From: Candidatus Stammera capleta
GTDB taxonomy: Bacteria; Pseudomonadota; Gammaproteobacteria; Enterobacterales; Enterobacteriaceae
Length of the DNA stretch: 64,000 nucleotides
Reading direction: 5' to 3'
Assembly: GCA_036689515.1 (NCBI GenBank)
Contig: CP144846.1
Location: forward strand, 166,081 to 230,080
The position numbers and the translations under genes were made by a program. Within the stretch, counting starts at the first letter, position 1. Each line of letters starts with the position of its first letter. Positions 41,202 through 64,000 of the stretch are shown here, piece after piece. The notes under the pieces were generated by a model. It had not been told where the DNA came from. It ran no database searches and saw only the letters and a program-made list of their open reading frames with translations.

Positions 41202-41570
41202 TTATTTTATTTCTACTGAAGCACCAACTTCTTCTAAAGATTTTTTTAATTCATCTAAATCTTTTTTATTAATTTTTTCTTTAATTAATACTGGACAAGA
41301 TTCAACTAAATCTTTTGCATCTTTTAATCCTAAATTTAAAAAATTACGAATAATTTTTATAACTGATATTTTATTATTACCAATACTATTTAAATATAAA
41401 TCAAACTCAGTTTTATTTTGTATATCATTTGTAACTTGTACACTACTTTCATTATTATAATCACTAGCACAAATACCAAATTTTTTTTCTATTGACTCTA
41501 TTAATTCAATAATTTCAATTAATGACATAGATGATATTAATTCTAATAAATTTTCTTTATTAACTTTCAT
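41202..41570 (-). CDS. rplL: 50S ribosomal protein L7/L12
   Basis: This is an intact track ORF. The C-terminal domain KISVIKIIRNFLNLGLKDAKDLVE...EVGASVEIK matches L7/L12. Confidence 0.92.
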   Translation of the reverse strand: MKVNKENLLELISSMSLIEIIELIESIEKKFGICASDYNNESSVQVTNDIQNKTEFDLYLNSIGNNKISVIKIIRNFLNLGLKDAKDLVESCPVLIKEKINKKDLDELKKSLEEVGASVEIK

Positions 41571-41599
41571 TATAATTACCCTTACAAAAAATTTATAAA

Positions 41600-42085: not shown

Positions 42086-42108
42086 TAAAAAATACCTATT
42101 ATTTTAAT

Positions 42109-42771: not shown

Positions 42772-42792
42772 TTTTAATATAATTTTTAAATA

Positions 42793-43227
42793 TTAAACAT
42801 TGTTATTAATAGATATTCCCATTGAACGTGCTGAACCTATAATAGATTTAACTACTGAATCAATTTTATTAGTATTAGTATCAATTAATTTAATTTTAGC
42901 TATATCAAAAATTAATTTTTTATCAATTTCAAATAAAATATTTGATCCAGGATTAGAAGAACCTTTTTTTAAAGATGAAAATTTTTTTAATAAATATGTT
43001 ACTGTAGGACTTTTAATTATAAAATCAAATGTACGATCAGAATAAACTGTTATAATAACAGGTAAAGGAATTCCTTTTTCTACATTAGAAGTTTTTTCAT
43101 TAAAAGATTTACAAAAATTCATTATATTTAATCCTCTTTGTCCTAAAATAGGACCTATAGGAGGACTTGGATTTGCCATTCCTGATAAAACGTGTATTTT
43201 TATATAATATTTAATTTTTTTTGACAT
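42793..43227 (-). CDS. rplK: 50S ribosomal protein L11
   Basis: ANPSPPIGPILGQRGLNIMNFCKSFNEKT is the L11 signature. This is an intact track ORF. Confidence 0.92.
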   Translation of the reverse strand: MSKKIKYYIKIHVLSGMANPSPPIGPILGQRGLNIMNFCKSFNEKTSNVEKGIPLPVIITVYSDRTFDFIIKSPTVTYLLKKFSSLKKGSSNPGSNILFEIDKKLIFDIAKIKLIDTNTNKIDSVVKSIIGSARSMGISINNNV

Positions 43228-43243
43228 ATTTTATATTTTTAAT

Positions 43244-43798
43244 TTAATAATTCTTTTCTACTTGTGAAAAATCTAATTCAACTGGAGTAGATCTACCAAA
43301 TATTAAAACAGATACTTTTAATCTATTTTTATCATAATCTACTTCTTCTACTGTACCACTAAATTCCGAAAAAGGACCTGAATTTACTCTTATTAATTCC
43401 CCTAATTCAAATAATATCTTCGGAATAGGTTTTCCATTTATTTTATTTAACCTATTTTTAATAATATTAATCTCATTTATATTAATAGGTAAAGGATTAT
43501 CAGAATTTCCTCCTATAAATCCAATTAAACGAGGTATACTTCTAATTAAATATCAATTTTTTTCATTCATAACCATATTAATTAAAAAATATCCTGGATA
43601 AAATTTACGATTACTTTTTTTTTTTATACCATTTTTTATTTCTATAACTTCTTCTGTAGGAATTAATATATCCCCAAAATCACTTTCTAAATGATTCAAA
43701 ATAATATATTTTTTAAGCTTATTTACAACTTTATTTTCAAAACCAGAAAAAACTTGTATTACATATCAATTCTTTTTATTCATTACATTATTTAACAT
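43244..43798 (-). CDS. nusG: Transcription termination/antitermination factor NusG
   Basis: [45 protein letters not shown], and [50 protein letters not shown] are near-identical to the E. coli C-terminus. Confidence 0.88.
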
Positions 43799-43801
43799 AA
43801 T

Positions 43802-44167
43802 TTATAACCTTAAATTTATAATTAAAGTAATCATATATGAAATAATAACATCAAAAAATCATATTATAATTGAAGTAAAAAAACTTATACTAAAAATTGT
43901 AAAAACTATTTTAAAAATTTCAGACAAATTTGGTCAATAAATTTTAACAACTTCAATTTTAGATTTTTTAAAATAAAAAATTATATTTTTAAGTCAAGAT
44001 AAAGATACAACAATAAAAAATAAAAAAAAATATAATAAAAAAATATATATTAATTTAAATATTAAAGAAAAATTTTGAATATAAAAATTTTTTAATATTA
44101 TTAAAAATGATAATATTGTAATAAAAAATAATTTATATAAATTTTGTATTAAAGTTATAATATACAT
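43802..44167 (-). CDS. secE: Preprotein translocase subunit SecE
   Basis: The C-terminal segment KSKIEVVKIY-W-PNLSEIFKIVFTIFSISFFTSIII-W-FFDVII matches SecE (E. coli VRKVVWPTRQETLHTT..LILWGLDGIL). It lies directly upstream of nusG. Confidence 0.75.
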
Positions 44168-44261
44168 TATATAAAATTTAACTATAATAATTTTTTGAAA
44201 TTTAAAATGCTAAATATTAATTATATAATAAAATATATTATAAATCAATATTTTATTAAAA

Positions 44262-44666
44262 CTATCAAACTAAATTTAATAAAAAATATTCTAAAAATTT
44301 CATTTTTTTATAATTAATATAATTTATATGATTATATCCTAAAATATGTAAAAATCCATGTATTAAAAGATGTGAAAAATAATATAAATAATCTATATTA
44401 TTAATTAACGATTCATTTCAAATTACTTTAGGAGACATTATAATTTCACCTAAAATATATGAATAATTGTTTTTAAAAACTAAATTATTATTAAAAGATA
44501 AAATATTAGTAGATTTATTAATATTTTTAAATTTTAAATTAATATTTAATATACTAATTTCATTCATTAATATAATATTTACTTTATTTTTAATTTTTAA
44601 AAATTTATTTAAAATATAAAATCATTTAAATAAAAAATATTCATTAGGATAAAAAAAAAAAATCAT
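44262..44666 (-). CDS. ybeY: Endoribonuclease YbeY (conservative ORF from the ATG at the homopolymer; see finding)
   Basis: NKSTNILSF and HLLIHGFLHILGYNH (zinc-binding H..H.....H) are present. The spacing from the FKW Trp to LSF is identical to E. coli YbeY. The gene ends at TAG 44262. miaB lies upstream as in E. coli. Confidence 0.75.
44651..44662. repeat. A12 homopolymer (T12 in the ybeY mRNA) at the ybeY 5' frame break
   Basis: I read one full block of ten a plus two more, flanked by ggat and tcatcaca. The length should be confirmed computationally. Confidence 0.5.
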
Positions 44667-44805
44667 CACATAAATTAATAATGTTAATTAATTTACTATT
44701 TAAACATAAACTATTATTTTTTTTCATAATATTTTAATACATTAATAAAAAAATATTTTAATATTAACTTAATTATATTAAATAAATATAATATAAAAAA
44801 ATTAT

Positions 44806-46137
44806 TTATTTTATTAAATTACCATATAAATAATTTATTTCCATTTTAGTTATTCTAACTTTCACTAATTTTCCTAAAATAGAATGAGAATTATATAAAA
44901 AATATACCTTTCTATTATTTTCTGTTCTTCCAAATAAATAACTACTATTTTTCTTAGATACACCTTCTACTAAAATTATTAATTTTTTATTTAAAAATGT
45001 TTTATTTCAATAAATAATATTTTTATTTATTAATTTTTTTACTTCATAAAATCTTCTTTTTTTTTCTAATAAACTAATATTATCTTTCATTAAAAAAGAT
45101 TTAGTACCAGGTCTAGGAGAATATATAAATATATAACTATGATCAAACTTTAATTCTTTTATTAAATCTAAAGTTAATAAAAAATCTTTTTCTGTTTCAC
45201 CAGGAAAACCAATTATAAAATCAGTACTAAAAATCATTTTAGGTCTAACATCCAAAATTTTATTAATTAATTCTTTATAATATTCTATGCAATATTTTCT
45301 ATTCATTAACTTTAATATTTTATTTGAACCACTTTGTACAGGTAAATGTAAATAATTAACAATTTTAGGAATTACTTTATAAGTATATATAATATCATCA
45401 TTAAAATCTATTGGATGACTAGTAGTAAATCTTATTCTTTTAATATTATTTATATATGATATTTTTTTTAATAAAGAAGAAAAATTACATAATTTACCAT
45501 TTAATCAAAAACTTTTATATGAAATTACATTTTGACCTAATAAATTAATTTCATTAATATTATATTTAGATAAATAATTAATTTCTTTAATAATATTATC
45601 AGGTAATCTACTAATTTCTCTACCACGCACAAAAGGTACTATGCAATATGAACAAAATTTATTACATCCTTCCATAATTGGAACATATGTACTTAATCTA
45701 ATATTTTCATTATTATTGTTTTTATTTAAAAAAAAATTTTTTTCTAAATTAAAAGATTTAATATCAATAATTTTTTTTTTAAATCGTAAATATTCCAATA
45801 TTAAATAATATAATTTATATATAGATTGAGGACCACAAATTATATTAACTATATCATTATATAAAAATAATTCATTACCTTTCTGTGAAGCTACACAACC
45901 ACAAACACATAATATCGATTTTTTAACTCTATTTTTTTCTATTTTATTAATAAAATTTAATAATTTATTTTCTGATTTTTGTCTTATAGAACAACCATTT
46001 AAAACAATTAAATCAGCTATTTTATAATCTATTATTTGTTTATAATCACCTAATGTTTCTAATAAATTAATTATTTTACTAGAATCATATTCATTAATTT
46101 GACAACCTCATGTTTTAATATAAAATGTTTTATTCAT
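44806..46137 (-). CDS. miaB: tRNA-i6A37 methylthiotransferase MiaB
   Basis: MNKTFYIKT-W-GCQINEYDS, MEGCNKFCSYCIVPFVRGRE (radical SAM CxxxCxxC), RFTTSHP, LHLPVQSGS, GFPGET and FIYSPRPGT are present. Track fragments lie in one frame. Confidence 0.9.
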
Positions 46138-46171
46138 ACTAATTTTATATACCAAAAAACAAAAATATAAA

Positions 46172-46247
46172 ACTAGCTACGATAGGATTTGAACCTATGA
46201 CCTCAGCGTTATGAATGCTGTGCTCTTACCTACTGAGCTACGTAGCC
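46172..46247 (-). tRNA. tRNA-Met (anticodon CAU, elongator type), no encoded CCA
   Basis: The reverse complement GGCTACGTAGCTCAGTAGGTAAGAGCACAGCATTCATAACGCTG...GGTTCAAATCCTATCGTAGCTA folds as a tRNA. Its first 15 nt are identical to E. coli elongator tRNA-Met. The anticodon loop is TTCATAA. Confidence 0.85.
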
Positions 46248-46271
46248 TAATTTAAATAATTATTAATTAAA

Positions 46272-46342
46272 CAGGGATACCAGGATTCGAACCTGGGATC
46301 ACGGGATCAAAACCCGTTGCCTTACCACTTGGCTATATCCCA
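46272..46342 (-). tRNA. tRNA-Gln (anticodon UUG), no encoded CCA
   Basis: The reverse complement TGGGATATAGCCAAGTGGTAAGGCAACGGGTTTTGATCCCGT...CCAGGTTCGAATCCTGGTATCCCTG resembles E. coli tRNA-Gln. The anticodon stem is ACGGG/CCCGT and the loop is TTTTGAT. Confidence 0.85.
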
Positions 46343-46362
46343 ATATTATAAATATTTTATTA

Positions 46363-46448
46363 TACGGAAGACGAGATTTGAACTCGTACACTATAAATTT
46401 AGTACTAGATTCTAATTCTAGTGCGTATACCAATTTCGCCACTTCCGT
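46363..46448 (-). tRNA. tRNA-Leu (anticodon UAG), class II, no encoded CCA
   Basis: Acceptor ACGGAAG/CTTCCGT with A73. Anticodon stem CTAGA/TCTAG with loop ATTAGAA. It has a long variable arm and T-arm ACGAG-TTCAAAT-CTCGT. Confidence 0.8.
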
Positions 46449-46501
46449 TTATATATATTTTTATAAAAAAATCACTATATTAATAGTATAATATCATTCA
46501 T

Positions 46502-47380
46502 ATGAAAAATAAATTATTATTTAAAATTTTTAATTATTGTATAAAATTATTTAAAAATAACAAATTATATTTTGGACATAATACTTATAATGCATATTCA
46601 GAAACTATACATTTAATTTATTCAATACTTAAATTAAACTTAAATGAAAAACTTAATAAAATATCAATTAATAAATATCAATTTTATAAAATAAAAAAAT
46701 TAGCTATTAAAAGAATAAAATATAAAATTCCAATAGCATATTTAACTAATAATACATGATTTTGTAATAAAAAATTTTATATTAATAAAAATGTTATGAT
46801 ACCAAGATCACCTATATCAGAAATTATAAATAATAAATTTAAATGTATAAATAAAAAATTTAATCCTAAAAAAATATTAGATTTATGTACAGGAAGTGCA
46901 TGTATTGCTATAAGTTGTTCATACATTTTTCCTAAATCTAAAATTTATGCTGTTGATATTTCACATAAAGCTTTATTAATAGCTAAAAAAAATGTTAAAT
47001 TACATAATAAAACTAAACAAATTATTATTAAACAATCTAATTTATTTAATAATTTAAAAAAAAAAAAATATGATTTAATAATAACAAATCCACCTTATAT
47101 AAATAAAAAACATATAAAATTTTTACCTAAAGAATATTCATATGAACCTTTAATATCTTTAATAACTAAAGATAATGGATTATTTATTATTAAACAAATA
47201 ATAAATAATTCATATAAATATTTAAATAAAAAAGGAATATTAATATGTGAAGTTGGATATCAAAAAAAAAAAATTAAAAAAAAAATACATATTAATTTAA
47301 AATGAATAAAAACAATAAATAAAAAAAACAATATATTTTATATTAAAAAAAAATATTTAAAAAATATTTTTTTTAAATAA
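46502..47380 (+). CDS. prmB: Ribosomal protein L3 glutamine N5-methyltransferase
   Basis: [60 protein letters not shown] and GILICEVG align with E. coli PrmB. Track ORFs 46502..46759 and 46796..47305 are in one frame. Confidence 0.85.
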
Positions 47381-48145
47381 ATATAAAAAATTATTATATA
47401 AATTATTAACCAAATTATTATAATTTATTTTTTTTAATTTACTTATTAAATTTAATATTAAAATAATATTATATGGTGTATTAATTTTATTTCTATAAGG
47501 TTCAGGGGTTAAAAAAGGAGAATCTGTTTCAACCAATAATCTATCTAATGGAATATATTTTATAATATCACGTAAATTAATAAAATTTTTAAAAGTTATT
47601 AAACCAGATAAAGAAATATATACTCCTAAATTTAAAAATTTATATAATTTTTGTTTATTTCCATAACTAAAACTATGTATAATTACTCCAAAATTTAATA
47701 TTGAAAATTTTTTTAAAATATTTAATGTATCATTAAATGCAAATCTACTATGTATAATAATAGGTTTATTATATTTATTAGCATAATATAAATGATAATA
47801 AAAATAATAATATTGTGATTTTTTTAATTCATAATCAACATTTAAATAATCCAAACCAGTTTCACCAATAGCAATAACTTTTTTATAATTAATAAATTTT
47901 TCAATATATCAAAATTTTTTTTTATTAATTGTATTAATATAATTAGGATGAACACCACAAGAAAAAAAAATATTATTAAAATTAGAAAATCTATTAAAAA
48001 TATTTATAAAATTATTAATATTAACAGAAATAGATAACAAATATTTTATTTTATATTTTTTACATAAAAAAATTATTTTTTCTATATTATATATTTTTTT
48101 ATCCAATAATATATCTAAATGACAATGAGAATCTATTAAATACAT
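47357..48145 (-). CDS. ycfH: TatD-family metal-dependent hydrolase YcfH
   Basis: MYLIDSHCHLD, VIAIGETGLDY, PIIIHSR and LLVETDSPFLTPEPYR are present. Track ORFs 47909..48145 and 47357..47854 are in one frame. It follows holB as in E. coli. Confidence 0.85.
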
Positions 48146-48159
48146 TTTATTAAATAATT

Positions 48160-49146
48160 TTAAATTAAATTAATAATATAATATATATCATATATTAACT
48201 TATACAATAAAATTTTTTTATTTAAATTTAAATTATTATTAATATTATTTAAAAATTTTATTAATTTATTTATTATTAATATAATTTTATTAGATTTTAT
48301 CTTTTTACTTAATATATTAAGTAATTCTATAGAATCAAAATTATAAAAATATTTATTATATTTTAATTTAATTTTAAGAATATCAACAAATATATAAAAT
48401 AATCAATATATATTATATTTTAATGAACTATTATTAATTAATAAAAATATTTTATTAATATTATTTTCAAAAAAATATTTAATATTTAATAAAAAATTAC
48501 ATCTAATTTTCCATAATTTATTTAAAAATATTATTGAATATAATGGAGAATAATTACTTAATCTTATAGAAGTTAATAATTCTTTATTATTTCAAATATT
48601 TTTTTTATTTAATTTTTTAATAATTCAATCTAAAGTACATTTTTCTTTAGGAACACATATTTCATATTTATAACATCTACTTAGTATAGTAGGAGGGATA
48701 ATAACATTATTAAAACACGAAAAAATAATAATTAATTTATAACCAGGTTCTTCTAATACTTTTAATAAAAAATTATTAACAAATTTATTATCAAAACTAA
48801 AATTATTAAAATAAATTATTTTATAATTAGATATATATAAATTATTATTAAAAATAGAATAAATTTCTCTTACCTTATTAATATTTATTTCATTTAATTT
48901 ATTAAATAAAAAAAAATTAGGATGATTTTTTTTATTTAATAAACGACAATTTAAACATTTGTTACAACTATAATAATTATTTTTATATATACAAAACATT
49001 CATTTAATTATATTAAAAACTAATATATCTACTCCTAATTCACAACTTGAATTAATTATTAATCCAAAATGATATTTATAAACAATATTTGAACTAATTA
49101 TTTTTTTATATATATTTTTTAATCACGGATATAATTTATATTTCAT
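48160..49146 (-). CDS. holB: DNA polymerase III delta' subunit
   Basis: MKYKLYP-W-LKNIYKKII matches E. coli MRWYPWLRPDFEKLV. CNKCLNCRLL is the zinc module. LLKVLEEPGYKLIIIFSCFNNVIIPPTILSRCYKY is present. I hand-translated to TAA 48160. Confidence 0.75.
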
Positions 49147-49281
49147 AACTAAATATCTATTAATAAATATTTTTAAAATTAATTAATATAATAATATAAA
49201 TTTTAAATATATAAAAATATTGTATTATAAATATTTTAAATGTTAATATATTATATTATTTAATAACAATAGGTTTTATTA

Positions 49282-49884
49282 ATGTCATTAATTACTAAAA
49301 AAGCACCTAATTTTATTACACAAGCAGTATCTAAAAATAATAAAATAATTGAAAATTTTAATTTTAAAAAAAAAATAAAAAATAAAAATTGTATATTATT
49401 TTTTTGACCTATGGATTTTACATTTATATGTCCATCTGAAATATTAGCATTTAATTATAAATATAAAGAGTTTAAAAAAAAAAATACAATTTTAATTGGA
49501 TCATCAATAGATTCAGTATATACACATTTAGCTTGAAAACACACTTCAATTGAAAATGGAGGAATAGGAAATATTAAATTTAATATAATATCAGATATTA
49601 CAAGAAAAATACAAAATTTATATAAAGTAGAATATAATAATAGTTTTTCATTAAGAGCTACATTTTTAATTGATAAAAATAGAATAATTAGACATATATC
49701 TATAAACGATCTACCTTTTGGACGAAATATAGATGAAATATTAAGATTAATAGATGCATTAAATTTTTACTCTGAAAATAAACAATTATGTCCAGCTCAA
49801 TGGAATATAAATAAAAAAGCAATTAATCCTACAAAAAAAGGATTAAAAAAATATTTTAAATATAATTTAAAAGATTTATCTTAA
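49282..49884 (+). CDS. ahpC: Peroxiredoxin, AhpC/Tsa family (2-Cys)
   Basis: [15 protein letters not shown] carries the peroxidatic Cys. RATFLID..RIIRH is present, and LCPAQWN carries the resolving Cys, with the Trp encoded here by TGG at 49801. It is absent from the track because of internal TGA codons. Confidence 0.88.
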
Positions 49885-49887
49885 ATA

Positions 49888-49934
49888 AAAACAATTTTTC
49901 TTCTTTAAGAATAAATAAGAAGAAAAATTGTTTT
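49888..49934. terminator. Perfect 17-bp-stem hairpin between convergent ahpC and rpmG (candidate bidirectional terminator)
   Basis: aaaacaatttttcttct (49888..49904) pairs perfectly with agaagaaaaattgtttt (49918..49934). It is followed by a T run on the plus strand and an A run on the other side. It overlaps the rpmG stop codon. Confidence 0.6.
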
Positions 49935-50094
49935 ATATTTTTTTTTCATTAAAAATTATATGTTTTTTAATTAAAGGATCATATTTTTTAATATTAATCT
50001 TTTTAACTGTATTAATTTTATTTTTAGTAGTTGTATAAAAATAACTACTTTTTGAAGATATTAACTTAATAATTATTCTTTTACTTTTTGCCAT
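49933..50094 (-). CDS. rpmG: 50S ribosomal protein L33
   Basis: [53 protein letters not shown] matches E. coli L33 ([29 protein letters not shown]...KFDPVVRQHVIYKEAKIK). Confidence 0.9.
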
Positions 50095-50100
50095 ATTAAA

Positions 50101-50316
50101 TTATTTTTTATTAATAAAATATTCAATTCCTTTTTTATCTATTATTCTAATAGCTTTAGAAGTTACTCTTAACTTTATAAATTTTTTTTTACTTTCTATT
50201 CAAAAACGATGATTATGTAAATTAGGAAAAAATTTTCTTCTATTAGCATTCATTGAATAAGATCTTATATTACCAAATTTAACCTTTTTACCTGTTATTA
50301 AACATTTTTTAGACAT
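50101..50316 (-). CDS. rpmB: 50S ribosomal protein L28
   Basis: MSKKCLITGKKVKFGNIRSYSMNANRRKFFPNLHNHRF-W-IESKKKFIKLRVTSKAIRIIDKKGI matches E. coli L28. The rpmB-rpmG order is conserved. Confidence 0.9.
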
Positions 50317-50394
50317 AATTAATATAATTTTAATATATTATTAATTTAATAATTTTTAAATATAACACATATATACATTTTATTAAAATAAAAT

Positions 50395-53300
50395 TTAATT
50401 ATATTTTTTAAAAAAAATAATATTTTTAAATATAAAACAATTTTTATAACCATAAATATTATTTTTAAATATTCCAAATATAATAATTATATTATTAATC
50501 TTAAATAATTTTTTATTTTTTAAATATAAATATTCAGAAATTATAATTTCAAATATACCCGTATAATCATTAATGTAAAATATATATATTTTATCTTTAT
50601 TTTTTGTAAAAAAAATTTTTTTCATAATTATCAAACCAAAAATATAAATTTTATTTATACCTTTTAAAAAATAAATATTTTTAATATCAATAATATTAAA
50701 TTTTTTTTTTACTAATTTAATATATTTATTAATAGGATGATTTGTTACATATAAACCTAATACTTCAAATTCTTTTTTAAATAAAAAAGATGTTTTATTA
50801 TTATAATTTATATTTTTATATAAATTAATTTCTTTAATAAAATCATCTTTTAAAAAACTTCTTTGTTTAAATAAACTATTTCTATTTTTAATAGAAGCAA
50901 TATTTAATACATATTTTATATTTTTATATAAAACATATCTATTAATTTTAAATAAATCAAAAGATCCAGAAAATATTAAACTTTCTAAAACTAATTTATT
51001 AATTTTAGAAGAAAAAGTTAAAATACAAAATTCTATAAAATTTTTAAAAATTTTATTTTTTGACCTTATTTTTAAAATATATTTTATCGAACTTTTACCT
51101 ATCCCTTTAATAGCACCCAAACCATAAATAATATTACCTTGATTATCTATTTTAAAATAATAATCACTAATATTAATATTTGGAAATATAATTTTTATAT
51201 TATGTTTCTTAGCTTCATAAATCATTATTTTAATTTTATTAAAATCATTAATATACGAATTCATTACAGAAACTATAAATTCAATAAAATAATTAGATTT
51301 CAATCATAAAGTTTGATATGCTATATATGCATATGAAACAGAATGAGATTTATTAAAACCATAACCAGAAGATTTTTCTATTAAAGAAAATATTTTTGAT
51401 GATAAATCAACATTTATACCTAACTTTTTTGAACCTTTTTTAAAAATTTTTCTATGATATTTAATATCGTTTTTGTTTTTTGAACTTATAGATCTCCTTA
51501 ATATATCAGCTAATCCTAAATCATAATTTGCTAATACTTTAGCAATTTCCATTATTTGTTCTTGATATAAAATAATACCATAAGTACATTTTAATATAGG
51601 CTTTAATAATTTATGTTGAATATTTTTATGAGGATAATATATCTTTTCATAACCATGTTTACGTTTAATATAATTATCAACCATACCTGATTTTAACGGA
51701 CCAGGCCTAAATAAAGCTAATAAAGCTATTATATCCTCAAATTTATCTGGTTTTAATTTTTGTATTAATAACCTCATACCTTTAGATTCTAATTGAAATA
51801 TAGCTACAGTATCTGCTTGTTTCAAACATCTAAAACTATTTTTATCTTTTAAAGATAAATTATTAATATTTATTATTTTTTTTTTATTCTTAAAAATTAA
51901 TTTTAATGTTTTATCTATAATAGTTAATGTTCTTAAACCTAATAAATCAAATTTAATTAAACCTACATATTCTATATCTTTTTTATCTAATTGAGTAATA
52001 ATTTTATTATCATTAAAATCAAAAAAAATAGGACAATAATCATCTACTAAACTAGGTGAAATAACTATTCCACCAGCATGTTTACCTAAACCTTTAATAA
52101 ATCCTTCTAATTTAGAAGCTATATATATTAATTTTTTTACTTCAATATTATTTTTATATAAATGAAGTAATTTATGTTCCATAATTAAAGCTTTTTTTAA
52201 TGTTATTCCTATATTAAAAGGAATTAATTTTGCTATATAATCAATAAAATTATAAGAATATCCTAATACTCTTCCTACATCTCTTATAACAGATTTTGCT
52301 GTTAATTTATTAAATGTAACAATTTGAGCAACTGATTGTTTACCATATAAATTTTCTATATGAGACAAAACTTTATCTCTTTGTAACATACAAAAATCTA
52401 TATCAAAATCAGGTATAGAAATTCTTTCTAAATTTATAAATCTTTCAAAAATTAAATCAAATTTTAAAGGATCTATATCAGTAATATATAAAACATATGC
52501 TACTAAAGATCCTGCACCAGATCCTCTTCCTGGACCTACAGGAATATTATGTTTTTTAGCTCATTGTACAAATTCCATTACAATTAAAAAATAATTAGCC
52601 AAAAACATTTTATTTATAATATTTAATTCATTTTCTAAACGTAATAAATATTTTTCTTTTTTAAATAAATTATTTTTATTAAAAATTATTCTTTTATATA
52701 AATTTTTATATGATAATTTTACTATATATTTTTCAGGTTTTTCATTATTTTTAATTTTAAAATTTGGTAATACAATATCCATTTTATTTAAAATAAAATT
52801 ACATCTTTGTGTAATTTGTACACTATTATACAATGCTTCTGGGATATCAGAAAACAAACAACACATTTCATATTCATTCTTTAAATATTGTTGTTCAGTA
52901 TAATTTATATATTTATAAATATTATTTAAATTACAATTATAATATATAGATGAACGTATTTTATTAAGAAAATAATCTTTTTTTTTAAAAAATAAAACTC
53001 TATTTGTAGCTACTACAGGAATTTTAGTTTCATATGACAAATTCATAATATTATTAATATAAATATTTTCATCAATATTTAATACTCTATATATATTTAA
53101 ATAAATTCTATTATTTAATATTTTTTTTCAAAATAAAAGTTTATCTTTTATTAAAATAAAATCTTTAAATATATATAATTTACCTAAACAACTAAATTTA
53201 TCAAAAGAAAATAAAAAAATTAATCCTTCATTAAAATCTAAAATATGTTTAAAATACAATGATATTGTATCTAAAGAAGATTTATTATTTAAATAAGCTA

Positions 53301-53613
53301 AAGAAATTAATTTAACTAAATTTTTAAATCCTTGTAAATTCATTACTAATATAGTAATTAAATGAGATTCATTACCTCAACTAATATAATTATCATAATG
53401 TATATAAATATCAATACCTATAACAGGTTTTATACCTTCAATATAACATTTATTAAAAAATTTTATTGATGCAGATAAATTTGTAAAATCTGTTAATGCT
53501 ATTGATGGCATTTTTATTTTTAATAAATTTTTAATTAATTTATTTATTTTACATAAACCATCTTTAAAAGAATAATCACTATGAACATTTAAATGTATAA
53601 ATTTAGGATCCAT
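50395..53613 (-). CDS. dnaE: DNA polymerase III alpha subunit
   Basis: Five track fragments lie in one frame. The PHP N-terminus is [49 protein letters not shown] and [11 protein letters not shown] are present. The protein is about 1072 aa. Confidence 0.93.
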
Positions 53614-53719
53614 TATTTATTAAATAATTAAATATTTATAAATTAATTATAACATTATAATAATTTATGTTTATTAAAAAAAAGAAATTATTTAAAATAT
53701 TTATTTAAAAATTTTTTTT

Positions 53720-56104
53720 TTATTCTAAATAAAATTGAAAATTATTTATTAAATCGTTTTTATATTTTTTTAATGGAAAACCATAAGAAATATTCAATTT
53801 ACCTATAGGAATTTTAAGTTTTAAAGATATACCATAAGAAATTCTAAATATTTGATTATAATTGTCAATATTATATTTTTTAAAATTTACATTATTTATT
53901 CATCTATTATCCCAAATAATACCTGTATCTAAAAATATATAAGAATTAATATATTGATTAATAAATTTATTTTTTATAAATAAATTTGAAAAATTTAATT
54001 CTGTATTAAAAAATATTAAAGAATTACTTCCTAAAGTATTATCAAATAAACAAAAATACTTATTTTTACTACATTTAAAATTATTTGAATTAATATAAAT
54101 TATTTTAGGTAAAATATTATTTAAATCAAAACTTCTTAAAACATTTTTATAAACATTAAAATTTTCATAAAATGGTACATTAGTTTTATTTAATCCATTT
54201 AAATAACCTAAATAAAAATGAAATGATAAAATAATATTATTATTTTTAAATAATGATAAATATTTATGAAACATAAAAAAAATTTTATAATATAAATTAT
54301 TTCAAATTGAAATCCCTATTTTAGTATTTAAACTTATATAATATCCATTCTTATGAAAAAAATTATTATCTAAATTATTTAATGACAATTTATTTTCTAA
54401 AATAAAATCATTAAAAATAAATCATTTATAATATAAATTATTTATATTTATATTTTTTTTTATAGAATTAAAATATTTTAATATAAAAAATTGAGGTCTT
54501 ATATAAGAAAATTTATTATTAATAAAATTAAAACTAATTTTATATTTTAAAATTTTATTTAAATAAAAAATTAAATTATTTTTTTGACCATATTTAAAAT
54601 TTAAATAATTTAAATTATTATTTAAATATTTAACAAAATAAAATTTATTTATAATTTTAATTTTATTGAATTTATTTAATAACTTAATTAAAGATAAATT
54701 TATTAATTTATAATCAATATTTTTATGTATATTAATTAATAATTTATTATATAAATTAAAAACATTTCTTTTATAAAACATTAAATTATAATTAAATTTT
54801 GTTTTTTTATTAAAACTAAAACCAAAATTTAATTTATATATTTTTTTTTCTATTAATTTATAAATAATATCAATTTTATTATAAAAAAATTTATTTTTTT
54901 TATAAAAAATATTAATATCTTTAAAAAAATGTGTATCAAGTAAATTTTTTAATCCTTTATTAATCAAATATTCATTATATTTTAAATTTTTCATATTAGG
55001 AATTAATTTATATAATAAATTATTTTTATAATTTTTATTACCAATTAATAAAATATCATTTATATAAAAAATATTATTAAATTTTATATTAAAATATAAA
55101 ATTAATTTATTTTTTAAAAAATTTTTATATTTTATATTAGTATCTATATTTAAATATCCTAATTTTTTAAAATATTTATTAATTTTAATAATAAAAAATT
55201 TAATTTTCTTTAAATTTAAATATTCATTTTTATTAAAAAAATGTATTTTAATTTTATCTATAATTATTTTATTTTTTAATAAATCACTAAATGTAAAAAT
55301 ATTAAATATTTTATATCTATTATTTTCATTTAAATATAAATAAATATTCAATAATCCTTTATTATTAAATTTAATAAAAATATTTTTAAAACTAAAATTA
55401 ATATAACCATTATTAAAATATTTGTTTTTAATTAAATTTATATCTTTATTAAAAATACGAGGTATAAATAAATAATCAAATAAATATTTAAAATATATAT
55501 TTAATTTTTTAGTTAATAAAAAAGAAAAAATATTTTTATTACTAAAAAATTTATTACCAAAAATATAAATTTTATTAACATATTTATTATATTTTTTATC
55601 TATATAAAATTTCAAAATTAAATTATTATTGATAATTTGTTTTTTAATTAAAAAATTAATATTAATAATACCTTTACTAAAATAAAAATTTTTTATATAA
55701 TTTTTAAAATTTAAAATAGATATATTATTTAAATATACACCATTTTTTAAATTAAATTTCTTTAAAATACTTAATATATCATTTTTTATAAAATATAAAT
55801 AATAATTATTTGATAAATAAATTTTTTTAATAATTTTTTTTTTATTTTTTATTAAAAATATGTTATTTATATTATTAAATTTAATAATATTTAAATATCT
55901 TAAATAATAATTTTTAAATAATAAATTAATTAATTCATATACCTTTAATAAATTATAATAATTTAAATTTTTAAATTTATTTTTATATAAAAAAAAATTA
56001 TTTTTAATAATATTAGAATTAAAATTTAAATTATTTAATTTACAAGATAAACAACTAAAATTATAAAAAAAAAACATAAATAATAAAAATATAAACTTAT
56101 TCAT
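53720..56104 (-). CDS. bamA: Outer-membrane protein assembly factor BamA
   Basis: Three track fragments lie in one frame, giving about 795 aa. The N-terminus MNKFIFLLFMFFFYNFS looks like a signal peptide. The barrel end has FLDTGIIWDNR-W and ISYGFPLKKYKNDLINNFQFYLE, which matches E. coli [26 protein letters not shown]. The track start at 56128 is TTG, and I prefer the ATG at 56104. Confidence 0.8.
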
Positions 56105-56200
56105 ACAATTAAATTGTAAAATTTTCAATAAAATATTATAATTTAAAAATTTAAAATATATTAAAATTATAAATATTATTATAAAATAATTTTTTAAAAA

Positions 56201-56761
56201 TTAATTATTTAATATAATTTTTTTCTTATTATTAAATATAATATTTATTAAATTAATATAATTATTAGTAAAAATCTGTATCTTTTTATTAAATAATTTA
56301 AATTGATCTTCATTAATATATTTATTTAATCATAAATTTTTATTTTTAATATTAAAAAATTTACGTATATTTCTAATATTTACCTTATATTTTTCAAAAT
56401 CATATTTTAATTTATTAAATATATTTTTTCTATAATTTTCTGTAATAGGAGGTAAATTAATTAAAATATTATTATTATCTATATTAGTTGATACATTTAA
56501 ATTAGAAGTTTCTATAACTTTTCTTACATTATTTTTAATATTTTTATCAAATAAAGATATTTTTATTAAATTATTATTTATTATAACTATATTAGACAAT
56601 TTACCTAAATTAATATTTTCTCCAAAATAATTTATAATTAAATCCGAAAATATATTTATATTAATTTTATTAACATTATAATTAGAAATTTTCTTTTTAA
56701 AAGATGAAACACATTCATCCATTTTTTTTTTAATATCACTATCTTCTATTAAATATAACAT
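56201..56761 (-). CDS. frr: Ribosome recycling factor
   Basis: MDECVSSFKKKIS, INLPPITENYRKNI and VNIRNIRK align with E. coli Frr (MDKCVEAFKTQIS, VPLPPLTEERRKDL, VAVRNVRR). Track ORF 56330..56761 was extended through TGA to TAA 56201, giving about 186 aa. Confidence 0.85.
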
Positions 56762-56827
56762 AATATTTATTAAATTAAATTAAAATTAATAATTAAAAAT
56801 TTACTTATAAATAAAATAAATAAATTA

Positions 56828-58564
56828 TTAATCATCTAAGAAACTACGTAGTATTTGAGATCTACTTGGATGACGTAATTTACGTAATGCTTTAGCTTCT
56901 ATTTGTCTTATTCTTTCTCTAGTTACATCAAATTTTTTTCCTACTTCTTCTAATGTATGATCACTATTCATATCAATACCAAAACGCATTCTCAAAACAG
57001 TAGCTTCTCTAGGAGTTAAACTTGATAATATACTATTAGTAACTGATTTTAAACTATCTGTAGTAGCAGAATCTAAAGGTAATTCTAAAGAAGTATCTTC
57101 TATAAAATCACCTATATGTAAATCATCATCTTCACCAATAGGTGTTTCCATAGAAATAGGTTCTTTTGCTATTTTTAATATTTTTCTTATCTTATCTTCA
57201 GATATTAACAAACGTTTAGATAATTCTTCAGGAGTAGGTTCTCTACCTATTTCTTGTAATATTTGTCGAGAAATTCTATTTAATTTATTTATAGTCTCTA
57301 TCATATGTACTGGAATTCTTATAGTTCTAGCTTGATCTGCTATTGATCTTGTAATGGCTTGACGTATTCATCATGTAGCATATGTAGAAAATTTATAACC
57401 ACGTTTATATTCAAATTTATCAACTGCTTTCATCAAACCTATATTACCTTCTTGTATTAAATCTAAAAATTGTAATCCTCTATTAGTATATTTTTTTGCT
57501 ATAGATATAACTAATCTTAAATTAGCTTTAACCATTTTTTGCTTAGATTTATTTATTTTATTTTCATATTCTAATATAGAATTATAAATTTTTTTAAAAT
57601 ATTTAATATTTACACAAATATTATTTTCTATTAAATATAATTTATTAATTAATTTTATTATTTTATCTTTTTTTTTAATTAAATTTAAACATCAAAATTT
57701 ATTCATATTTATAGCTAATTTAAATCAATTTTTTTTGTTAAAAAATAAATAAATAAAAATATTTTTAGGCATATTACATTTATAAACACATAAATACTTA
57801 ATTTTTTTTTCTATAAAATCAATCTTTCTTATAATATTTTTAATATTTAAAACTAATATATTAAAATATTTAGGATTTAATTTAAATTTCATAAAAATAT
57901 TAACTAATTTAGTTAATTCACATTTAGTATAAGGATGATTTATACTATATTTTTTTATAAAATTTTTTAAAACTAAATATTGATTTTCTAAATATTTTAC
58001 CTTATTTTTTATAAGTATATTATCTACAAAATAATTAATATTTGATTCAAAAAAACCATCTAAATAACTAATTTTATTAATTATATTAACATTATTATTT
58101 ATTAAAAAATAATAATCTATATTATAATCTATATATCCAATTATTAAATCACATAAACGTAATTTTCCTAATTTTACAAGATCATATTGATCTAAAAAAT
58201 ATTTTATAGAAATAAAATATTTACCAATATTTAATTGAATACTATTAATACTATCTTCAATACATTTTGCTATATTAATTTCTCCTTCTCTAGTTAATAA
58301 ATTTATATTACCCATTTCTTTCATATACATACGTATAGAATCTGTATTTTTATTATTTTCTAAATTATTTTTAGATAAATTATCTTTATTTTTAATAATA
58401 GGTATATTTAAATTATTAATTACCTTTATAATTTTATTATATTTAAATAAATTATTTTTCTTTAAAAAATAAAATTCTTTTTTAATTTTAGAATAATTAA
58501 TATAACCATGTTTTTTAGCTTTATTAATTAATAAATTTAATTTTAATTTAATTTTTTTGTCCAT
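56828..58564 (-). CDS. rpoD: RNA polymerase sigma-70 factor
   Basis: [92 protein letters not shown] and [33 protein letters not shown] are near-identical to E. coli RpoD. Confidence 0.93.
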
Positions 58565-58614
58565 ATTATTAACTATAATTTATTTTTTATAAATAATATT
58601 TTAAAATATAAAAT

Positions 58615-60363
58615 TTAATTTTTACTTAAATTTTTTAATTTTATTAATTCTCACATTTTTTTTTTCTGATTTAAATTTAAACCATATAAACTATCTATTA
58701 TTTTCATATTTTTTAATTTATATTCTATAATATAAATTTTTAATTTCATCAAAGCATCATTAAATATTAAATTATAATTTATATTATTAGGAAAATAATT
58801 TCATAAAAATAAATATTTTAAATAATTCTTAATTTTAATTTCATTAAATTTATTTATTATACTAAAAACATCGATAGAATTATTATTTATACAAAAATTT
58901 ACTATATCAAAAAATAAAAATAAATCTGGAATATCTATATTAATATTAATAAATAATTTATCATACAAATCTACATTTTTAGCCAAAATAGGATATTTTA
59001 AAATTAAACTTATTAAACATTTTAAAATAGTAAATTTAACTTTATTAGTTTTAATTTTATTATTTTTTAACAAATAAATATTTAAATTATTAAAATTATA
59101 AAAACCTATTTTATTATTAATTTTTTTTTTTAAAAACAATTTAATTATAGGAGATTTAATTTTATTAATAATAGGAATTAAATAATTTAAAAAATTAATT
59201 TTTCCTTCATTAGTAAATAAATTTTCACCTAACATTGCAAATTTAAATAAAACATCAAAAATAGATAATGCATTATTAATTCTTTTTTTAAATTTTAATT
59301 TTCCTTCCTTTTGAATTAAAGAATCAGGATCTTCACCACGTGGCAAAAAAACAAAAAAAGACATTTTATTTTTGCTAATATATCCAACAACTAAATTAAT
59401 AACTCTTTTTATAGATAAAATACCTGCTTTATCACCATCAAAACAAAAAATTATTTTATTGGTATAAAAAAATAATAATTTTATTTGATAATCACAGATA
59501 TTTGAACCTAATAATGCTACTGAATAAGTTATATTAAATTTATATAACATAATTACATCTATATAACCTTCAACTATTAATATCTTTTTTACAATCAAAT
59601 TATTTTTAACTACATTAAATAAATTATATAAACATTTTTTTTTACTAAAAAAATAATTTGTAGGAGTATTTATATATTTATATATATTAAATTTATATAA
59701 ACATCTACTTCCAAAAGCTACTATATTACCAAATAAATTATATATAGGAAAAGTAATTCTATTATATAATCTATCATATAAATAACCTTTTTTATCTTTT
59801 AAAAAAAAACCTAACTTAAATAACATATTTTTTTTTTTATTATTTAATGTAGTTAAAAATTCTTTAATTAAACAATCATAAGAATATCCAATAGAAAAAA
59901 ATTTAATTATTTGTAAATTAAAATTACGATATAAAAAAAAATTTTTAATTTTTCCAACATTTAAATTTATAAATAAAGATTTAACATAAATTAAATTTAA
60001 AGAATACATTAAATCAAAAAATAATTTTTCATTAAAATGTTTTTTTGATAATATTTTAATATTATTTTCAAATTTTATTGGTATATTACTAATATTACAT
60101 AATTCCTTAACTGCTTCTATAAAATTTAAATTATTAAATTTTATTAAAAAATCTATTATATTTCCATAACATTTACATCCAAAACAATAAAAAAATTGTT
60201 TATTTCTATTAACAAAAAAAGAAGGATTTTTTTCTTTATGAAAAGGACAAAATGATTTGTAATAATTACCAATTTTCTTTAAATTTATTTTTGATGATAT
60301 AATATCTATAATATCATTTTGTAACAATAATTTATTAATTAATAATTTAGAAATATAACTCAT
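58615..60363 (-). CDS. dnaG: DNA primase
   Basis: The zinc ribbon is FCPFHKEKNPSFFVN...FYCFGCKCYGN. The TOPRIM region has ILIVEGYIDV and FDGDKAG. Track ORF 58801..60363 ends at TGA, and I hand-translated 61 further open codons to TAA 58615. Confidence 0.88.
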
Positions 60364-60389
60364 ATATTAATAAAAAAATAAAATAAATA

Positions 60390-60614
60390 TTATTTATATT
60401 GTTTTGATTTAATAAAATTAAAATTGATACGATAATTTTGTTTTATACGTCTTTTAATAGCAGAAGCTTTAGCTTTTTTTCTTTCAGTAGTAGGTTTTTC
60501 ATAAAATTCTCTTCTACGCATTTCTGTTAAAATACCAGATTTTTCACATAATCTTTTAAATCTTCTTAAAGCAACATCAAATGGTTCATTTTCTTTAATT
60601 ATTATAAATGGCAT
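60390..60614 (-). CDS. rpsU: 30S ribosomal protein S21
   Basis: [45 protein letters not shown] is near-identical to E. coli S21. The rpsU-dnaG-rpoD operon order is conserved. Confidence 0.93.
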
Positions 60615-60695
60615 AATATATCCTATATAATTTAAAATATTTTTTAAAATATTATATAATACTATTATATTATAATAATGATAAAAATCAAAAAT

Positions 60696-61697
60696 ATGTT
60701 TGTATTAGGTATAGAAACATCATGTGATGAAACAGCAATAAGTATTTATAATTCAAAAAAAGGTATAATTATTAATAAATTATTCAGTCAAATCAACATA
60801 CATAATAAATTCGGAGGAATAATACCAGAAATTGCTTCTAAAAATCATGTTAAAAAAATAATACCTTTATTAAATAAAGTATTTAAATCAATTAATTTTA
60901 ATATTAAAAAAATAGATTTAATAGCATATACAGCTGGACCAGGATTACCTAATTCATTATTAATAGGAACTACATTAGCTAAATGTATATCATTTTTATT
61001 TAAAAAACCTTCAATTCCTATTAATCATTTAGAAGCGCATATTTTATCTATTATGTTATTAAAAAAAAAACCTAAATTTCCTTTTGTTTGTTTAATAACT
61101 TCTGGTATTAATACATTATTATATATAGTTAAAAATTATGAAAAATATAAAATAATAGGAAAAACATTAGACAATTCAGCTGGAGAAACATTTGATAAAA
61201 TTGCTAAAATTTTAAAACTAAATTTACCAGGAGGGAAAAATATATCTAAATTAGCAATTTATGCAAATAAAAACTTAAATTTTCCAAAACCATTAATTAA
61301 TAAAAAAAATTTAAATTTTAGTTTTTCAGGTCTTAAAACACATATTTTATATTTTATAAAAAATAAAAAATTAAATTTTCAAACTAAAGCAAATATAGCT
61401 TACTCCTTAGAAAAAAGTATAATAAATATTTTAATTAAAAAAACTATATTAGCATCAAATAAATTTAATATTAAAAATATATCAATTGTAGGTGGTGTTA
61501 GTTTAAATAAAAAATTAAGAAAAAAAATGATTAATAAATGTAAATCATTAAATAAAAATATATTTTTTGCTAAAAAAGAATATTGTACAGATAATGCTGC
61601 TATGATAGCATATACAGGTTTTATAAAACATAAATTAAAAAATTTTAATTTAAAAATAAAAATAAAACCTACATGAAATATTAATGAAATATTTTAA
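60696..61697 (+). CDS. tsaD: tRNA N6-adenosine threonylcarbamoyltransferase TsaD
   Basis: [18 protein letters not shown] matches E. coli [37 protein letters not shown] and [10 protein letters not shown] are present. The track start at 60678 is six codons upstream. The gene extends past TGA 61674 to TAA 61695. It lies divergent from rpsU as in E. coli. Confidence 0.88.
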
Positions 61698-62901
61698 ATT
61701 TTTTTATTATATTAAATTTTTTAAATAAAAATTTAATTTTTTTTAATCTTATTAAAAAAATTTTTTTTTTAATATCTTTACCTTTATAACCTAATTTAAT
61801 AATATTTTGTACATTAATTTTATTTAAATATATATATATATTTATAATATTTTCATTTAAAATTATAAATAAATATTTATTTTTTAATGGTAAATGTTTC
61901 AAAATATTTGTTAAATTTAACAAATTAAAAATCATTTTATCATTTCTTCATATATCTAATTTATCTAATAAATTAATTATAAATAAATATATATTTTCTT
62001 TTTTATAAAAATATACTTTATATAAAAAATAATATATTTTTTTAAAAAAAAAAAATAATTTATTTGATATATGTAACCTTTTACAAAATAATTTAACAAC
62101 ATTAATAATAAATTTTTTATTTAAAAAATATTCTTTAGAAAAAATAGTACAATTAAAAAAAAAACATAAACATACAAAATTTAAATTAATATCAAAATTA
62201 TTTACGTATAGTTTATTAAAAATAAAAACAAAATAATAAAAAAATTTATTGTTTTTAAAAAAATAATATAATTCAGGAAAAATAAATTTTAATGCATGAC
62301 ATTTATATAATATATAAAAATATATAAATATATTTTTATCACCAAAAACTTTTTCAGTTTCCATTCAAATTCTTTCCGGTGTTATATTAAATAATTCTCC
62401 AGAATAAGAAATATTTTTCATTAAAACAAATGTTTTATCACTAATTACAAATTTAAATTTAAAAAAACGGGTATAAAAACGAGCAACTCTAAGTAATCTA
62501 ATAGGATCATCTAAAAAATAAATAGAAACATGTCTAATAATTCTATTTTTAATATCATCTAAACCTCCAAAAGGATCATAATATTTTTTATTATTATCCA
62601 TAGCAATAGCATTTATAGTAATATCTCTTCTAAATAAATCATCTTTTAATGATATACAAGAAGAACAATTAACATCAAAACCTTTATAACCAACTCCATT
62701 TTTAGTTTCTTTTCTAGCTAAAGCATATTCTTCTTTAGTTTTAGGATGAATAAAAACAGGAAATGAATTACCTACCGGTTTAAATCCTAAACTAATCATT
62801 TCATTATAAGAAGATCCTACTACAACTCAATCTTTATCTCTTATATTTTTATAACCTAATAATTTATCTCTTATAGCTCCACCTACTAAATATATTTTCA
62901 T
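61681..62901 (-). CDS. cca: CCA-adding tRNA nucleotidyltransferase with a degenerate HD domain
   Basis: [67 protein letters not shown] and ITPERI-W align with E. coli Cca. Three track fragments lie in one frame. Confidence 0.85.
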
Positions 62902-62915
62902 AATATTTAATATAC

Positions 62916-63128
62916 TTAAAATTTTAAATCAAATTTATTCAAAATTTTTTTATCAAACATATTATTTTCTATTTCTTTTAAAGCTATTAAAATAGGTTTA
63001 TCTTTATTTTTATATAATAATTCTTTAGAATATAATTGTATTTGTCTAGCACGATAAGAAGCAATTAAAACTAAATCAAAACGATTACCAATAATATTTA
63101 CAGCTTTTTGTATTGTCAAATAAACCAT
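62916..63128 (-). CDS. rpoZ: RNA polymerase omega subunit
   Basis: [26 protein letters not shown] matches E. coli [26 protein letters not shown]. Confidence 0.85.
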   Translation of the reverse strand: [70 protein letters not shown]

Positions 63129-63184
63129 AATAACATTTAATTAATTTTTAATATTAATAAATTATATATTAATTAATAAATAAT

Positions 63185-64000
63185 TTAAATATTTAAATTA
63201 TATAAATTTATTTTAGAATAAATATTTTTATATTTTAATATTTTATGATTAAGTAAAGGTACTTTTAAATTAGATCAAACTAATTTAGTTTGTAAAAATT
63301 TTTCTATTTTATTTGTTATAGAAGGTATAATTGGACATAAATAAATAGATATAATTTTAAATATATTTAAAATAGTAGTACAAAACATATGTAATTCTAA
63401 TCTATATTTTTTATCTTTAATTTTTACTCAAGGTTTATAATCATTAATATATTTATTTACATTATCTAATAAATTATTAACTAATAAAATTACTTTAGAA
63501 TAATTAAAATTTAAAAAAAATTTTTTAATTAAAACAGATTTATAAATAAAATAATTATAAAAATTAATATTAAATAATTTTTTAGATAAAAAATCATTAT
63601 AAAAATTATTTATAAAATATGATATTCTAGATGCTATATTTACATATCTATTAACTATATCAGAATTTATTTTATTAACAAAATCTTTAATAGATAAATT
63701 AATATCATTTATACCATCATCTAAATAACTAGCAAAATAATATCTAATACTATCAATATCATAAAATTCTAATCATTTATTTAAACTAATAAAATAATTA
63801 TTTGATTTTGACATTTTACTATTATTAAATAATAAATGACCATGAACAATTAATCCTGAAGGTTTTCTAAAATTTAAACAATCTAAAATTATAGGTCATA
63901 ATATTGAATGAAAATATAATATATCCTTACCTATAAAATGATATATTTCATAATTACTATCTGTATTTCAAAATTCATTAAATAAAAATAATAATTTTTT
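63185..64000 (-). CDS. metG: Methionyl-tRNA synthetase, 3' portion only (5' end lies beyond the window)
   Basis: The reverse-strand translation gives HFIGKDILYFHSIL-W-P..L....RKPSGLIVHGHLLFNNSKMSKSNNYFI (KMSKS motif), SIRYYFAS, INSDIVNRYVNIASR and KP-W-V. It aligns with E. coli MetRS residues about 290..545 and ends at TAA 63185. Confidence 0.8.

Follow-up and report, generated by a model that had tools for sequence, protein, structure and literature searches.

The rpoD gene in the 64,000-nucleotide stretch of DNA analysed here (the window) raises the question of whether genes interrupted by TGA codons are broken, or whether they are intact genes in which UGA is read as tryptophan (Trp). Two adjacent TGA codons in the part of rpoD that encodes sigma-70 region 2.3 put the question most sharply. 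Taking contig identity, a tree of RpoD, a sister strain and gene order together, we are nearly certain that the window belongs to the chromosome of a strain of Candidatus Stammera capleta, a pectinolytic member of the Enterobacterales that lives extracellularly as the symbiont of cassidine leaf beetles, in which UGA would be read as tryptophan genome-wide (translation table 4). The code change is already known and is not new as a discovery, because code 4 has been on record for Stammera since 2017 and its annotation follows that code. What may be new is a Hirsh-type A24 in the Stammera tRNA-Trp with anticodon CCA, discussed below.

TGA codons in the window genes

Under the standard bacterial code (table 11), rpoD is split into collinear open reading frames (ORFs) of 279, 54 and 158 amino acids (aa). 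The features that matter for the code are the following.

1..64000 (no strand assigned): part of the Ca. Stammera capleta chromosome; table 4 applies to all of its protein genes, of which there are 57 or more
56828..58564, minus strand: rpoD, 578 aa under table 4, with four TGA and no TGG codons; an identical table-4 product is present in an NCBI-derived protein set
57368..57373, minus strand: tandem TGA TGA (TCATCA on the plus strand), W398-W399 of RpoD in sigma-70 region 2.3, from a masked alignment to E. coli
32906..37099, minus strand: rpoC, with seven in-frame TGA codons in a frame of 1397 codons that is open under table 4
23166..23168, plus strand: end of ybgI (NIF3 family) at a TAG, a stop codon used only twice in the table-4 gene set
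44262..44264, minus strand: TAG stop of ybeY in the table-4 gene set, with a TGA immediately before it

Simple gene calling with table 4 yields 52 genes that cover 89% of the window, at a GC content of 15.1%. These genes contain 129 in-frame TGA codons against 5 TGG codons, with one or more TGA in 43 of the 52. About a dozen more are found beyond this gene set (in rpmI, rpmB, rpmG, rpsU, rpoZ, a large gene that runs off the window on the left, and rpoC and metG at their true 5' ends), which brings the window total to approximately 140, with a maximum of seven in any essential gene. The preliminary description of this DNA had stated that nearly every long gene is chopped at TGA in the standard code, and had proposed a comparison of table 4 with table 11; the statement is borne out by the ORF scan of the window, in which the number of ORFs of at least 300 aa rises from 12 to 25 once TGA is taken as sense. 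Frames of 1341 codons (rpoB) and 1398 codons (rpoC) are opened in this way. Taking TAG as sense, on the other hand, leaves the ORF set of the window unchanged.

The ends of the genes show the same pattern. Stops in the 52 genes are TAA in 50 cases and TAG in two, at 23166 and 44262 as had been described before, and the table-4 C-termini of the window genes coincide with those of E. coli. Interruptions of the table-11 reading are exclusively TGA and never TAA or TAG, and no window gene was found to depend on a TGA stop. The base 3' of TGA shows no bias within the window compared to the base after other codons.

Two further observations concern the distribution of these codons. In ung (31881-31883 region) and ybeY (44265-44267) TGA is the last sense codon, with TAA or TAG directly after it; these terminal TGA codons may be former stops that are now read through by one codon. 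The rpoB-rpoC block (32000-40000) has a GC content of 22%, against 11-15% elsewhere in the window, and holds two of the five surviving TGG codons.

Correspondence of TGA to tryptophan

To establish which amino acid TGA stands for, window proteins were aligned by blastp to 14 regions of E. coli K-12 MG1655. Every TGA was masked as X before alignment, so that the test of tryptophan identity is unbiased. After one paralogous hit was dropped, E. coli has tryptophan opposite 69 of the 91 aligned TGA codons, against a tryptophan background of 0.83% among the aligned E. coli residues (binomial P ~1e-123). Glycine or cysteine is never found opposite any of these 91 codons. Seen from the other side, the E. 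coli tryptophan positions are encoded in the window by TGA 71 times and by TGG five times, and all five TGG codons are opposite tryptophan. The sites named in the preliminary description are given below together with the genes in which they occur.

37154..41170, minus strand: rpoB, with TGA 37355-37357 at W1272 (GEMEVWALEAYGA), alignment to E. coli
12063..13157, minus strand: fbaA, with TGA 12801-12803 and 12267-12269, both opposite E. coli tryptophan in the masked alignment
10040..10585, minus strand: ppa, with TGA 10136-10138 at tryptophan (KWVK), masked alignment
4815..5168, plus strand: rplT, with TGA 4995-4997 at tryptophan (FRKLW), masked alignment
5197..6171, plus strand: pheS, with TGA 5665-5667 at tryptophan (DTFW), masked alignment
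2235..2780, minus strand: ydjM, with TGA 2403-2405 at tryptophan (LLWP), masked alignment
49801..49803, plus strand: residual TGG tryptophan codon in ahpC, opposite E. coli tryptophan
48511..48513, minus strand: residual TGG tryptophan codon in holB, opposite E. coli tryptophan

All nine TGA codons named there (57368, 57371, 37355, 12801, 12267, 10136, 4995, 5665 and 2403) are indeed in frame and opposite a tryptophan of E. coli K-12. The tandem pair, which had been assigned to the WW of sigma-70 region 2.3, is in frame on the minus strand with tryptophan opposite both codons, and the two residual TGG codons in ahpC and holB that had been pointed out are among the five counted here. Two marks of table 4 are thus seen: in-frame UGA stands on tryptophan positions of conserved genes and, within the window, UGA is unused as a terminator with UAA or UAG at the expected ends.

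Placement within Ca. Stammera capleta

Two Logan assembly contigs of Sequence Read Archive run SRR23946953 are 100% identical to the window. Its table-4 RpoD is identical to P0010 in the NCBI-derived set, on an NCBI contig of 252,963 bp, and window proteins without any TGA are found verbatim in a public protein collection on a contig of this same length; a near-identical strain has 252,913 bp. An exact look-up of PfkA gave no match. The next relatives by RpoD are approximately 35 NCBI genomes of 245-314 kb at 60-71% identity, followed by Buchnera, Sodalis-like symbionts, Pantoea and Arsenophonus at 52-58%. A neighbour-joining tree was built from RpoD distances alone and carries no support values. 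It places the window within a clade of about 37 tiny genomes, beside a subclade with CP024013; the clade also holds GCA_036689315.1. Both have been named: CP024013 as Candidatus Stammera capleta (PMC9543054) and GCA_036689315.1 as a Stammera capleta genome (gTranslate preprint).

Comparison at the nucleotide level gives the same result. The sister strain CP144848.1 (GCA_036689525.1) has 95.9% DNA identity over 17.2 kb, and about 17 kb of the window (46.7-64 kb) is collinear with CP024013 at approximately 73% nucleotide identity. The order metG-rpoZ-cca-tsaD-rpsU-dnaG-rpoD-frr-bamA-dnaE-rpmBG-ahpC-holB is common to the window and CP024013 and includes junctions that are absent from E. coli, such as rpoD-frr-bamA-dnaE-rpmB-rpmG-ahpC-holB. 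At 22 positions a TGA in the window is matched by a TGA in CP024013. With a genome of approximately 253 kb (252,963 bp) and 15.1% GC, the strain falls within the published range of 49 Stammera genomes, which have a GC content of 13.9-20.4% and a size of 0.22-0.34 Mb (PMC13462651 Table 2).

The gammaproteobacterial lineage proposed in the preliminary description agrees with both gene order and closest homologues, which are those of Enterobacterales, and the four operon orders cited in its favour (thrS-infC-rpmI-rplT-pheST, secE-nusG-rplKAJL-rpoBC, lepA-lepB-rnc-era and rpsU-dnaG-rpoD) are all present. Its remark that a mycoplasma-type code is known in such a lineage from only a few extremely reduced symbionts also holds, Stammera itself being one published case. 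A betaproteobacterial origin (Zinderia or Nasuia), which was suspected from the GC content, was rejected on account of the Enterobacterales homologues. No rRNA gene and no pectinase gene was found within the window; to its left are recC and one further large gene to which no family was assigned. A literature search on run SRR23946953 gave no paper that mentions it and no host. A scan of a genome collection with RpoD gave, among the matches listed, which fell on widely conserved sigma-70 motifs, only other Gammaproteobacteria and not the source genome. This miss is explained by the make-up of GTDB, from which the genomes of the known code-4 symbionts are left out because they have too few marker genes (PMC13462651; gTranslate preprint).

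PMC10540940, PMC8629427 and PMC13462651 credit Salem et al. (2017) with the publication of code 4 in Stammera, and UGA as tryptophan in this symbiont is treated as an established case (PMC8629427; PMC10540940; PMC13462651; gTranslate preprint). Among the 49 surveyed genomes UAA makes up 88-97% of the stops (PMC13462651 Table 2). Five basal Stammera genomes use code 11 and have kept prfB, the gene for release factor 2 (RF2) (gTranslate preprint).

Replacement of TGG by TGA within Stammera

Codons were counted in the called genes of the same 20-kb region, the rpoD neighbourhood, of five Stammera strains.

CP144774: 0 in-frame TGA, 50 TGG, 3 TGA stops
CP144787: 0 in-frame TGA, 44 TGG, 1 TGA stop
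CP144790: 1 in-frame TGA, 43 TGG, 0 TGA stops
CP024013: 39 in-frame TGA, 4 TGG, 0 TGA stops
CP144848 (sister strain): 44 in-frame TGA, 2 TGG, 0 TGA stops

Replacement of TGG by TGA took place inside Stammera, as shown by this series. The WW codons of rpoD are TGG TGG in E. coli and in three deep-branching strains, and TGA TGA in CP024013 and the window; in the window all four tryptophan codons of rpoD have switched. The order of the series fits classical codon capture under AT pressure, in which TGA stops are lost first and TGG is changed to TGA next.

The symbiont of Cassida rubiginosa (CP024013) resembles the window in its code, in the TGA TGA of rpoD and in the derived gene order, and also in GC content (14%) and genome size (271 kb; 271,175 bp), with proteins that are 54-69% identical. 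It is nonetheless a separate strain lineage, with about 73% nucleotide identity and an RpoD of 604 aa compared to 578 aa in the window. CP144774 and CP144787 (standard code) and CP144790 (incipient code 4) belong to the same clade and share the synteny around rpoD, but they keep TGG (43-50 against 0-1 TGA), are larger (292-314 kb) and have a higher GC content. In CP144774 and CP144787 some genes still end in TGA.

Several differences in gene content were observed along the same strains. Between bamA and dnaE, CP024013 and two deep strains carry skp (L084 14986-15519), which is absent from the window (53613-53720) and from the sister strain. Deep strains have uppS (ispU) between frr and bamA, and this gene is absent from the window and CP024013. 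RpoD has 578 aa in the window and the sister strain, while its length in most Stammera strains is 593-612 aa; in the window protein the Pfam model of region 1.1 (PF03979) no longer registers and the N-terminal linker is shortened. A histidine kinase gene, a response regulator gene and efp persist between the tRNA-Trp gene and pepA in the code-11 strain CP144774 (L105 6663-9806), whereas CP024013 has there approximately 500 nt of non-coding DNA (L103 16464-16974). These regulatory genes near pepA are lost on the same branch as the code change.

Decoding of UGA

How UGA is read concerns tRNA-Trp and RF2. The window carries four tRNA genes (Ser-UGA, Met, Gln and Leu), and none for tRNA-Trp, prfA or prfB was found within its 64 kb. 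It does carry trpS, miaB and prmB. The tRNA-Trp(CCA) gene was recovered in two relatives, where it lies beside tRNA-Ile(GAU) between hinT and pepA.

31885..32874, minus strand: trpS, tryptophanyl-tRNA synthetase, predicted to charge the tRNA for both UGG and UGA; alignment to E. coli
44806..46137, minus strand: miaB, ms2i6A37 tRNA methylthiotransferase, retained, with substrates that include tRNA-Trp; alignment to E. coli
L103 16388-16463: tRNA-Trp(CCA) of CP024013 (code 4), covariance-model alignment
L105 6577-6651: tRNA-Trp(CCA) of CP144774 (code 11), covariance-model alignment

Minimum-free-energy folds of these AT-rich tRNAs gave no cloverleaves, and the D-stem assignment therefore rests on alignments to Rfam covariance models. 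In both relatives the anticodon of tRNA-Trp is CCA, A9 is unchanged and the anticodon stem has 5 bp; the D stem contains U11-A24, compared to U11-G24 in E. coli trpT. Both thus combine the CCA anticodon with an A24 paired to U11, as is typical of the Hirsh suppressor. The substitution G24A (Hirsh) lets E. coli tRNA-Trp(CCA) read UGA; where the anticodon stem of a bacterial tRNA-Trp(CCA) gene has 4 bp, A9C and/or G24A are common (PMC13092985). This paper deals with G24A in general terms only; Stammera comes up in it once, on account of an anticodon stem of 5 bp. In a full-text literature search, the Hirsh suppressor or G24A was found in no other paper on the code of Stammera.

The preliminary description had expected a tRNA-Trp with anticodon UCA. 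This expectation fails, as tRNA-Trp(UCA) is found in none of the 49 Stammera genomes surveyed and tRNA-Trp(CCA) in all of them (PMC13462651 Table 2). Because of this zero out of 49, tRNA-Trp(UCA) is not required for membership of table 4. The same description held that an intact prfB together with only a CCA-anticodon tRNA-Trp would disprove reassignment. Such a rule is unsafe: prfB is present in 15 of the 49 genomes and absent from 34 (PMC13462651 Table 2; preprint 10.64898/2026.05.24.727570), while of these 15 only the five basal genomes are reported to use code 11. Some code-4 Stammera strains contain prfB (gTranslate preprint), and since code-4 strains have tRNA-Trp(CCA) only, the rule would wrongly reject a real reassignment.

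A mechanism can be outlined from these data. Judging by the surveys and the two relatives, the strain would possess no cognate tRNA-Trp(UCA), and its single tRNA-Trp(CCA) would read UGA through a C34-A mismatch at the third codon position. The U11-A24 pair may supply the decoding capacity, as the Hirsh G24A does in E. coli. Loss or weakening of RF2 (prfB) would remove the competing termination, after which extreme AT mutational pressure (15% GC) would convert TGG to TGA. A24 cannot be the switch, because the code-11 strain has it too. We tentatively suggest that Stammera decodes UGA by a natural Hirsh-type tRNA-Trp(CCA), with A24 as a pre-adaptation that would have permitted near-cognate reading of UGA and made it possible to tolerate the loss of RF2, and with this loss, not a change in the tRNA, as the actual switch, although we consider this rather doubtful. 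A link of the retained miaB to UGA reading may also be imagined.

The surroundings of these tRNA genes differ from what is customary. The tRNA-Ile(GAU) gene is normally located in the spacer of an rRNA operon; here it lies next to tRNA-Trp(CCA) (L103 16302-16463; L105 6488-6651), with no rRNA gene beside it in the DNA examined. The E. coli trpT gene comes after rrfC-aspT (L109).

Alternative explanations

The most obvious alternative is that the genes are pseudogenes, in which TGA arose by nonsense mutation as the genome decayed and the collinear pieces are relics. Pseudogenes are known to accumulate in reduced symbionts and table 11 does fragment 43 of the 52 genes, yet we find this explanation barely credible: decay has not touched these frames with a single TAA or TAG, 76% of the aligned TGA codons are on E. 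coli tryptophan positions, CP024013 shares these TGA positions with a nucleotide identity of about 73% (22 matches; the WW of rpoD), and the essential rpoB, rpoC, rpoD and dnaE as well as the aminoacyl-tRNA synthetases would all be dead. Equally hard to believe is that UGA encodes another amino acid, being glycine (table 25), cysteine or selenocysteine. Although recodings of UGA to glycine and to selenocysteine are known in other bacteria (PMC13462651), tryptophan is opposite TGA 69 times and glycine or cysteine never, TGA and TGG are swapped at the same sites between strains, and surveys report neither tRNA-Sec nor selB in Stammera (PMC13462651). A different symbiont lineage with an independent code change (Zinderia, Nasuia or an undescribed gammaproteobacterium) would constitute a new case, and the GC content of 15% and the genome size are like those of Zinderia and Nasuia; the miss of the source genome in the genome-collection scan also speaks in its favour. 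We consider this very improbable, given that the best non-self homologues are from Enterobacterales, that RpoD falls inside the Stammera clade rather than beside it, that rearranged junctions and TGA positions are common to the window and CP024013, and that a genome named Stammera (gTranslate preprint) has an accession in the GCA_0366892xx-5xx series, to which the sister strain also belongs.

Ambiguous decoding deserves slightly more credit, though we still judge it improbable. Here RF2 would be kept, UGA would be read as tryptophan by inefficient readthrough, and some UGA codons would still terminate. Such a transitional state is seen in the leech symbiont Providencia siddallii (PMC10540940), prfB occurs in 15 of 49 Stammera assemblies and tRNA-Trp(UCA) in none (PMC13462651), and in ung and ybeY a TGA is the last codon before TAA or TAG. 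However, with approximately 140 in-frame TGA codons and up to seven per essential gene, a readthrough of 50% per site would abolish RpoC, and no window gene needs a TGA stop. Moreover, in the series from TGG to TGA the strain stands among the most advanced, and its genome is small (253 kb) compared to about 313 kb in the code-11 strains examined.

Some points weigh against the reading of UGA as tryptophan in a Stammera strain or against the decoding proposed for it. In 22 of the 91 aligned cases TGA is opposite a residue other than tryptophan, mostly F, Y, L or S where conservation is poor; this is consistent with ordinary substitution, but leaves the amino acid inserted there unproven. The status of tRNA-Trp and prfB in the strain itself would follow from relatives and published surveys. 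Finally, A24 occurs in the code-4 strain CP024013 and also in the code-11 strain CP144774, and it could be mere AT drift.

Other genes and junctions

A number of features in the window are unrelated to the code. ThrS (2849-4072, plus strand) has only 407 aa and aligns to E. coli ThrRS from approximately residue 243, so that it lacks the TGS and editing domains of the N-terminus (about 240 aa); there is no room for them because the divergent ydjM is only 68 nt away. Between era and ung, 548 bp (30685-31232) contain no ORF and may be a decayed remnant; in E. coli era is followed by recO, pdxJ and acpS. On the minus strand (44262-46448) the junction tRNA-Leu/Gln/Met-miaB-ybeY-secE-nusG unites regions that are distant in E. 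coli, where miaB is near 0.69 Mb and secE near 4.18 Mb, and the tRNA cluster by miaB matches the leuW-glnU-metU neighbourhood of E. coli. Lastly, tRNA-Ser (anticodon UGA, 22317-22400, plus strand) shares sequence with the 5' end of an ORF called naively under table 4 (22323-23168); the true start of ybgI (NIF3) is an ATG at approximately 22413.

Consequences and comparison with known systems

For annotation the choice of code is decisive. Table-11 pipelines would shred 43 of the 52 window genes, so that the false pseudogenes foreseen in the preliminary description would indeed arise; annotations of published Stammera genomes use genetic code 4. The usual markers of code 4, tRNA-Trp(UCA) and the absence of prfB, fail for Stammera, and alignment evidence is the reliable test. 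The lineage spans the standard code, an incipient state (1 TGA to 43 TGG) and near completion (129 to 5 in the window). This within-lineage series makes it a good system for studying how a CCA tRNA comes to read UGA.

The E. coli Hirsh suppressor has, like the tRNA-Trp of the two Stammera relatives, a CCA anticodon and an A24 paired with U11. It differs in being a laboratory mutation that acts against RF2, whereas A24 in Stammera is native and is also found in a code-11 strain. Ca. Zinderia insecticola is a spittlebug symbiont that shares code 4, a tiny genome (13.5% GC) and tRNA-Trp(CCA) as the only tRNA-Trp, and in which prfB is absent. Zinderia is betaproteobacterial, however, and its 4-bp anticodon stem has been proposed as the UGA reader (PMC13092985), against a stem of 5 bp in the two Stammera tRNAs recovered. 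Mycoplasmatales, Hodgkinia and Nasuia also read UGA as tryptophan, have lost RF2 and use UAA as the dominant stop, but they do so with a cognate tRNA-Trp(UCA), which Stammera is without. Ca. Providencia siddallii PSAC is, like Stammera, an Enterobacterales symbiont with UGA as tryptophan and tRNA-Trp(CCA). It represents an early stage, in which UGA occurs in approximately 20% of the genes, some UGA stops are kept and prfB is retained, itself with an internal UGA.

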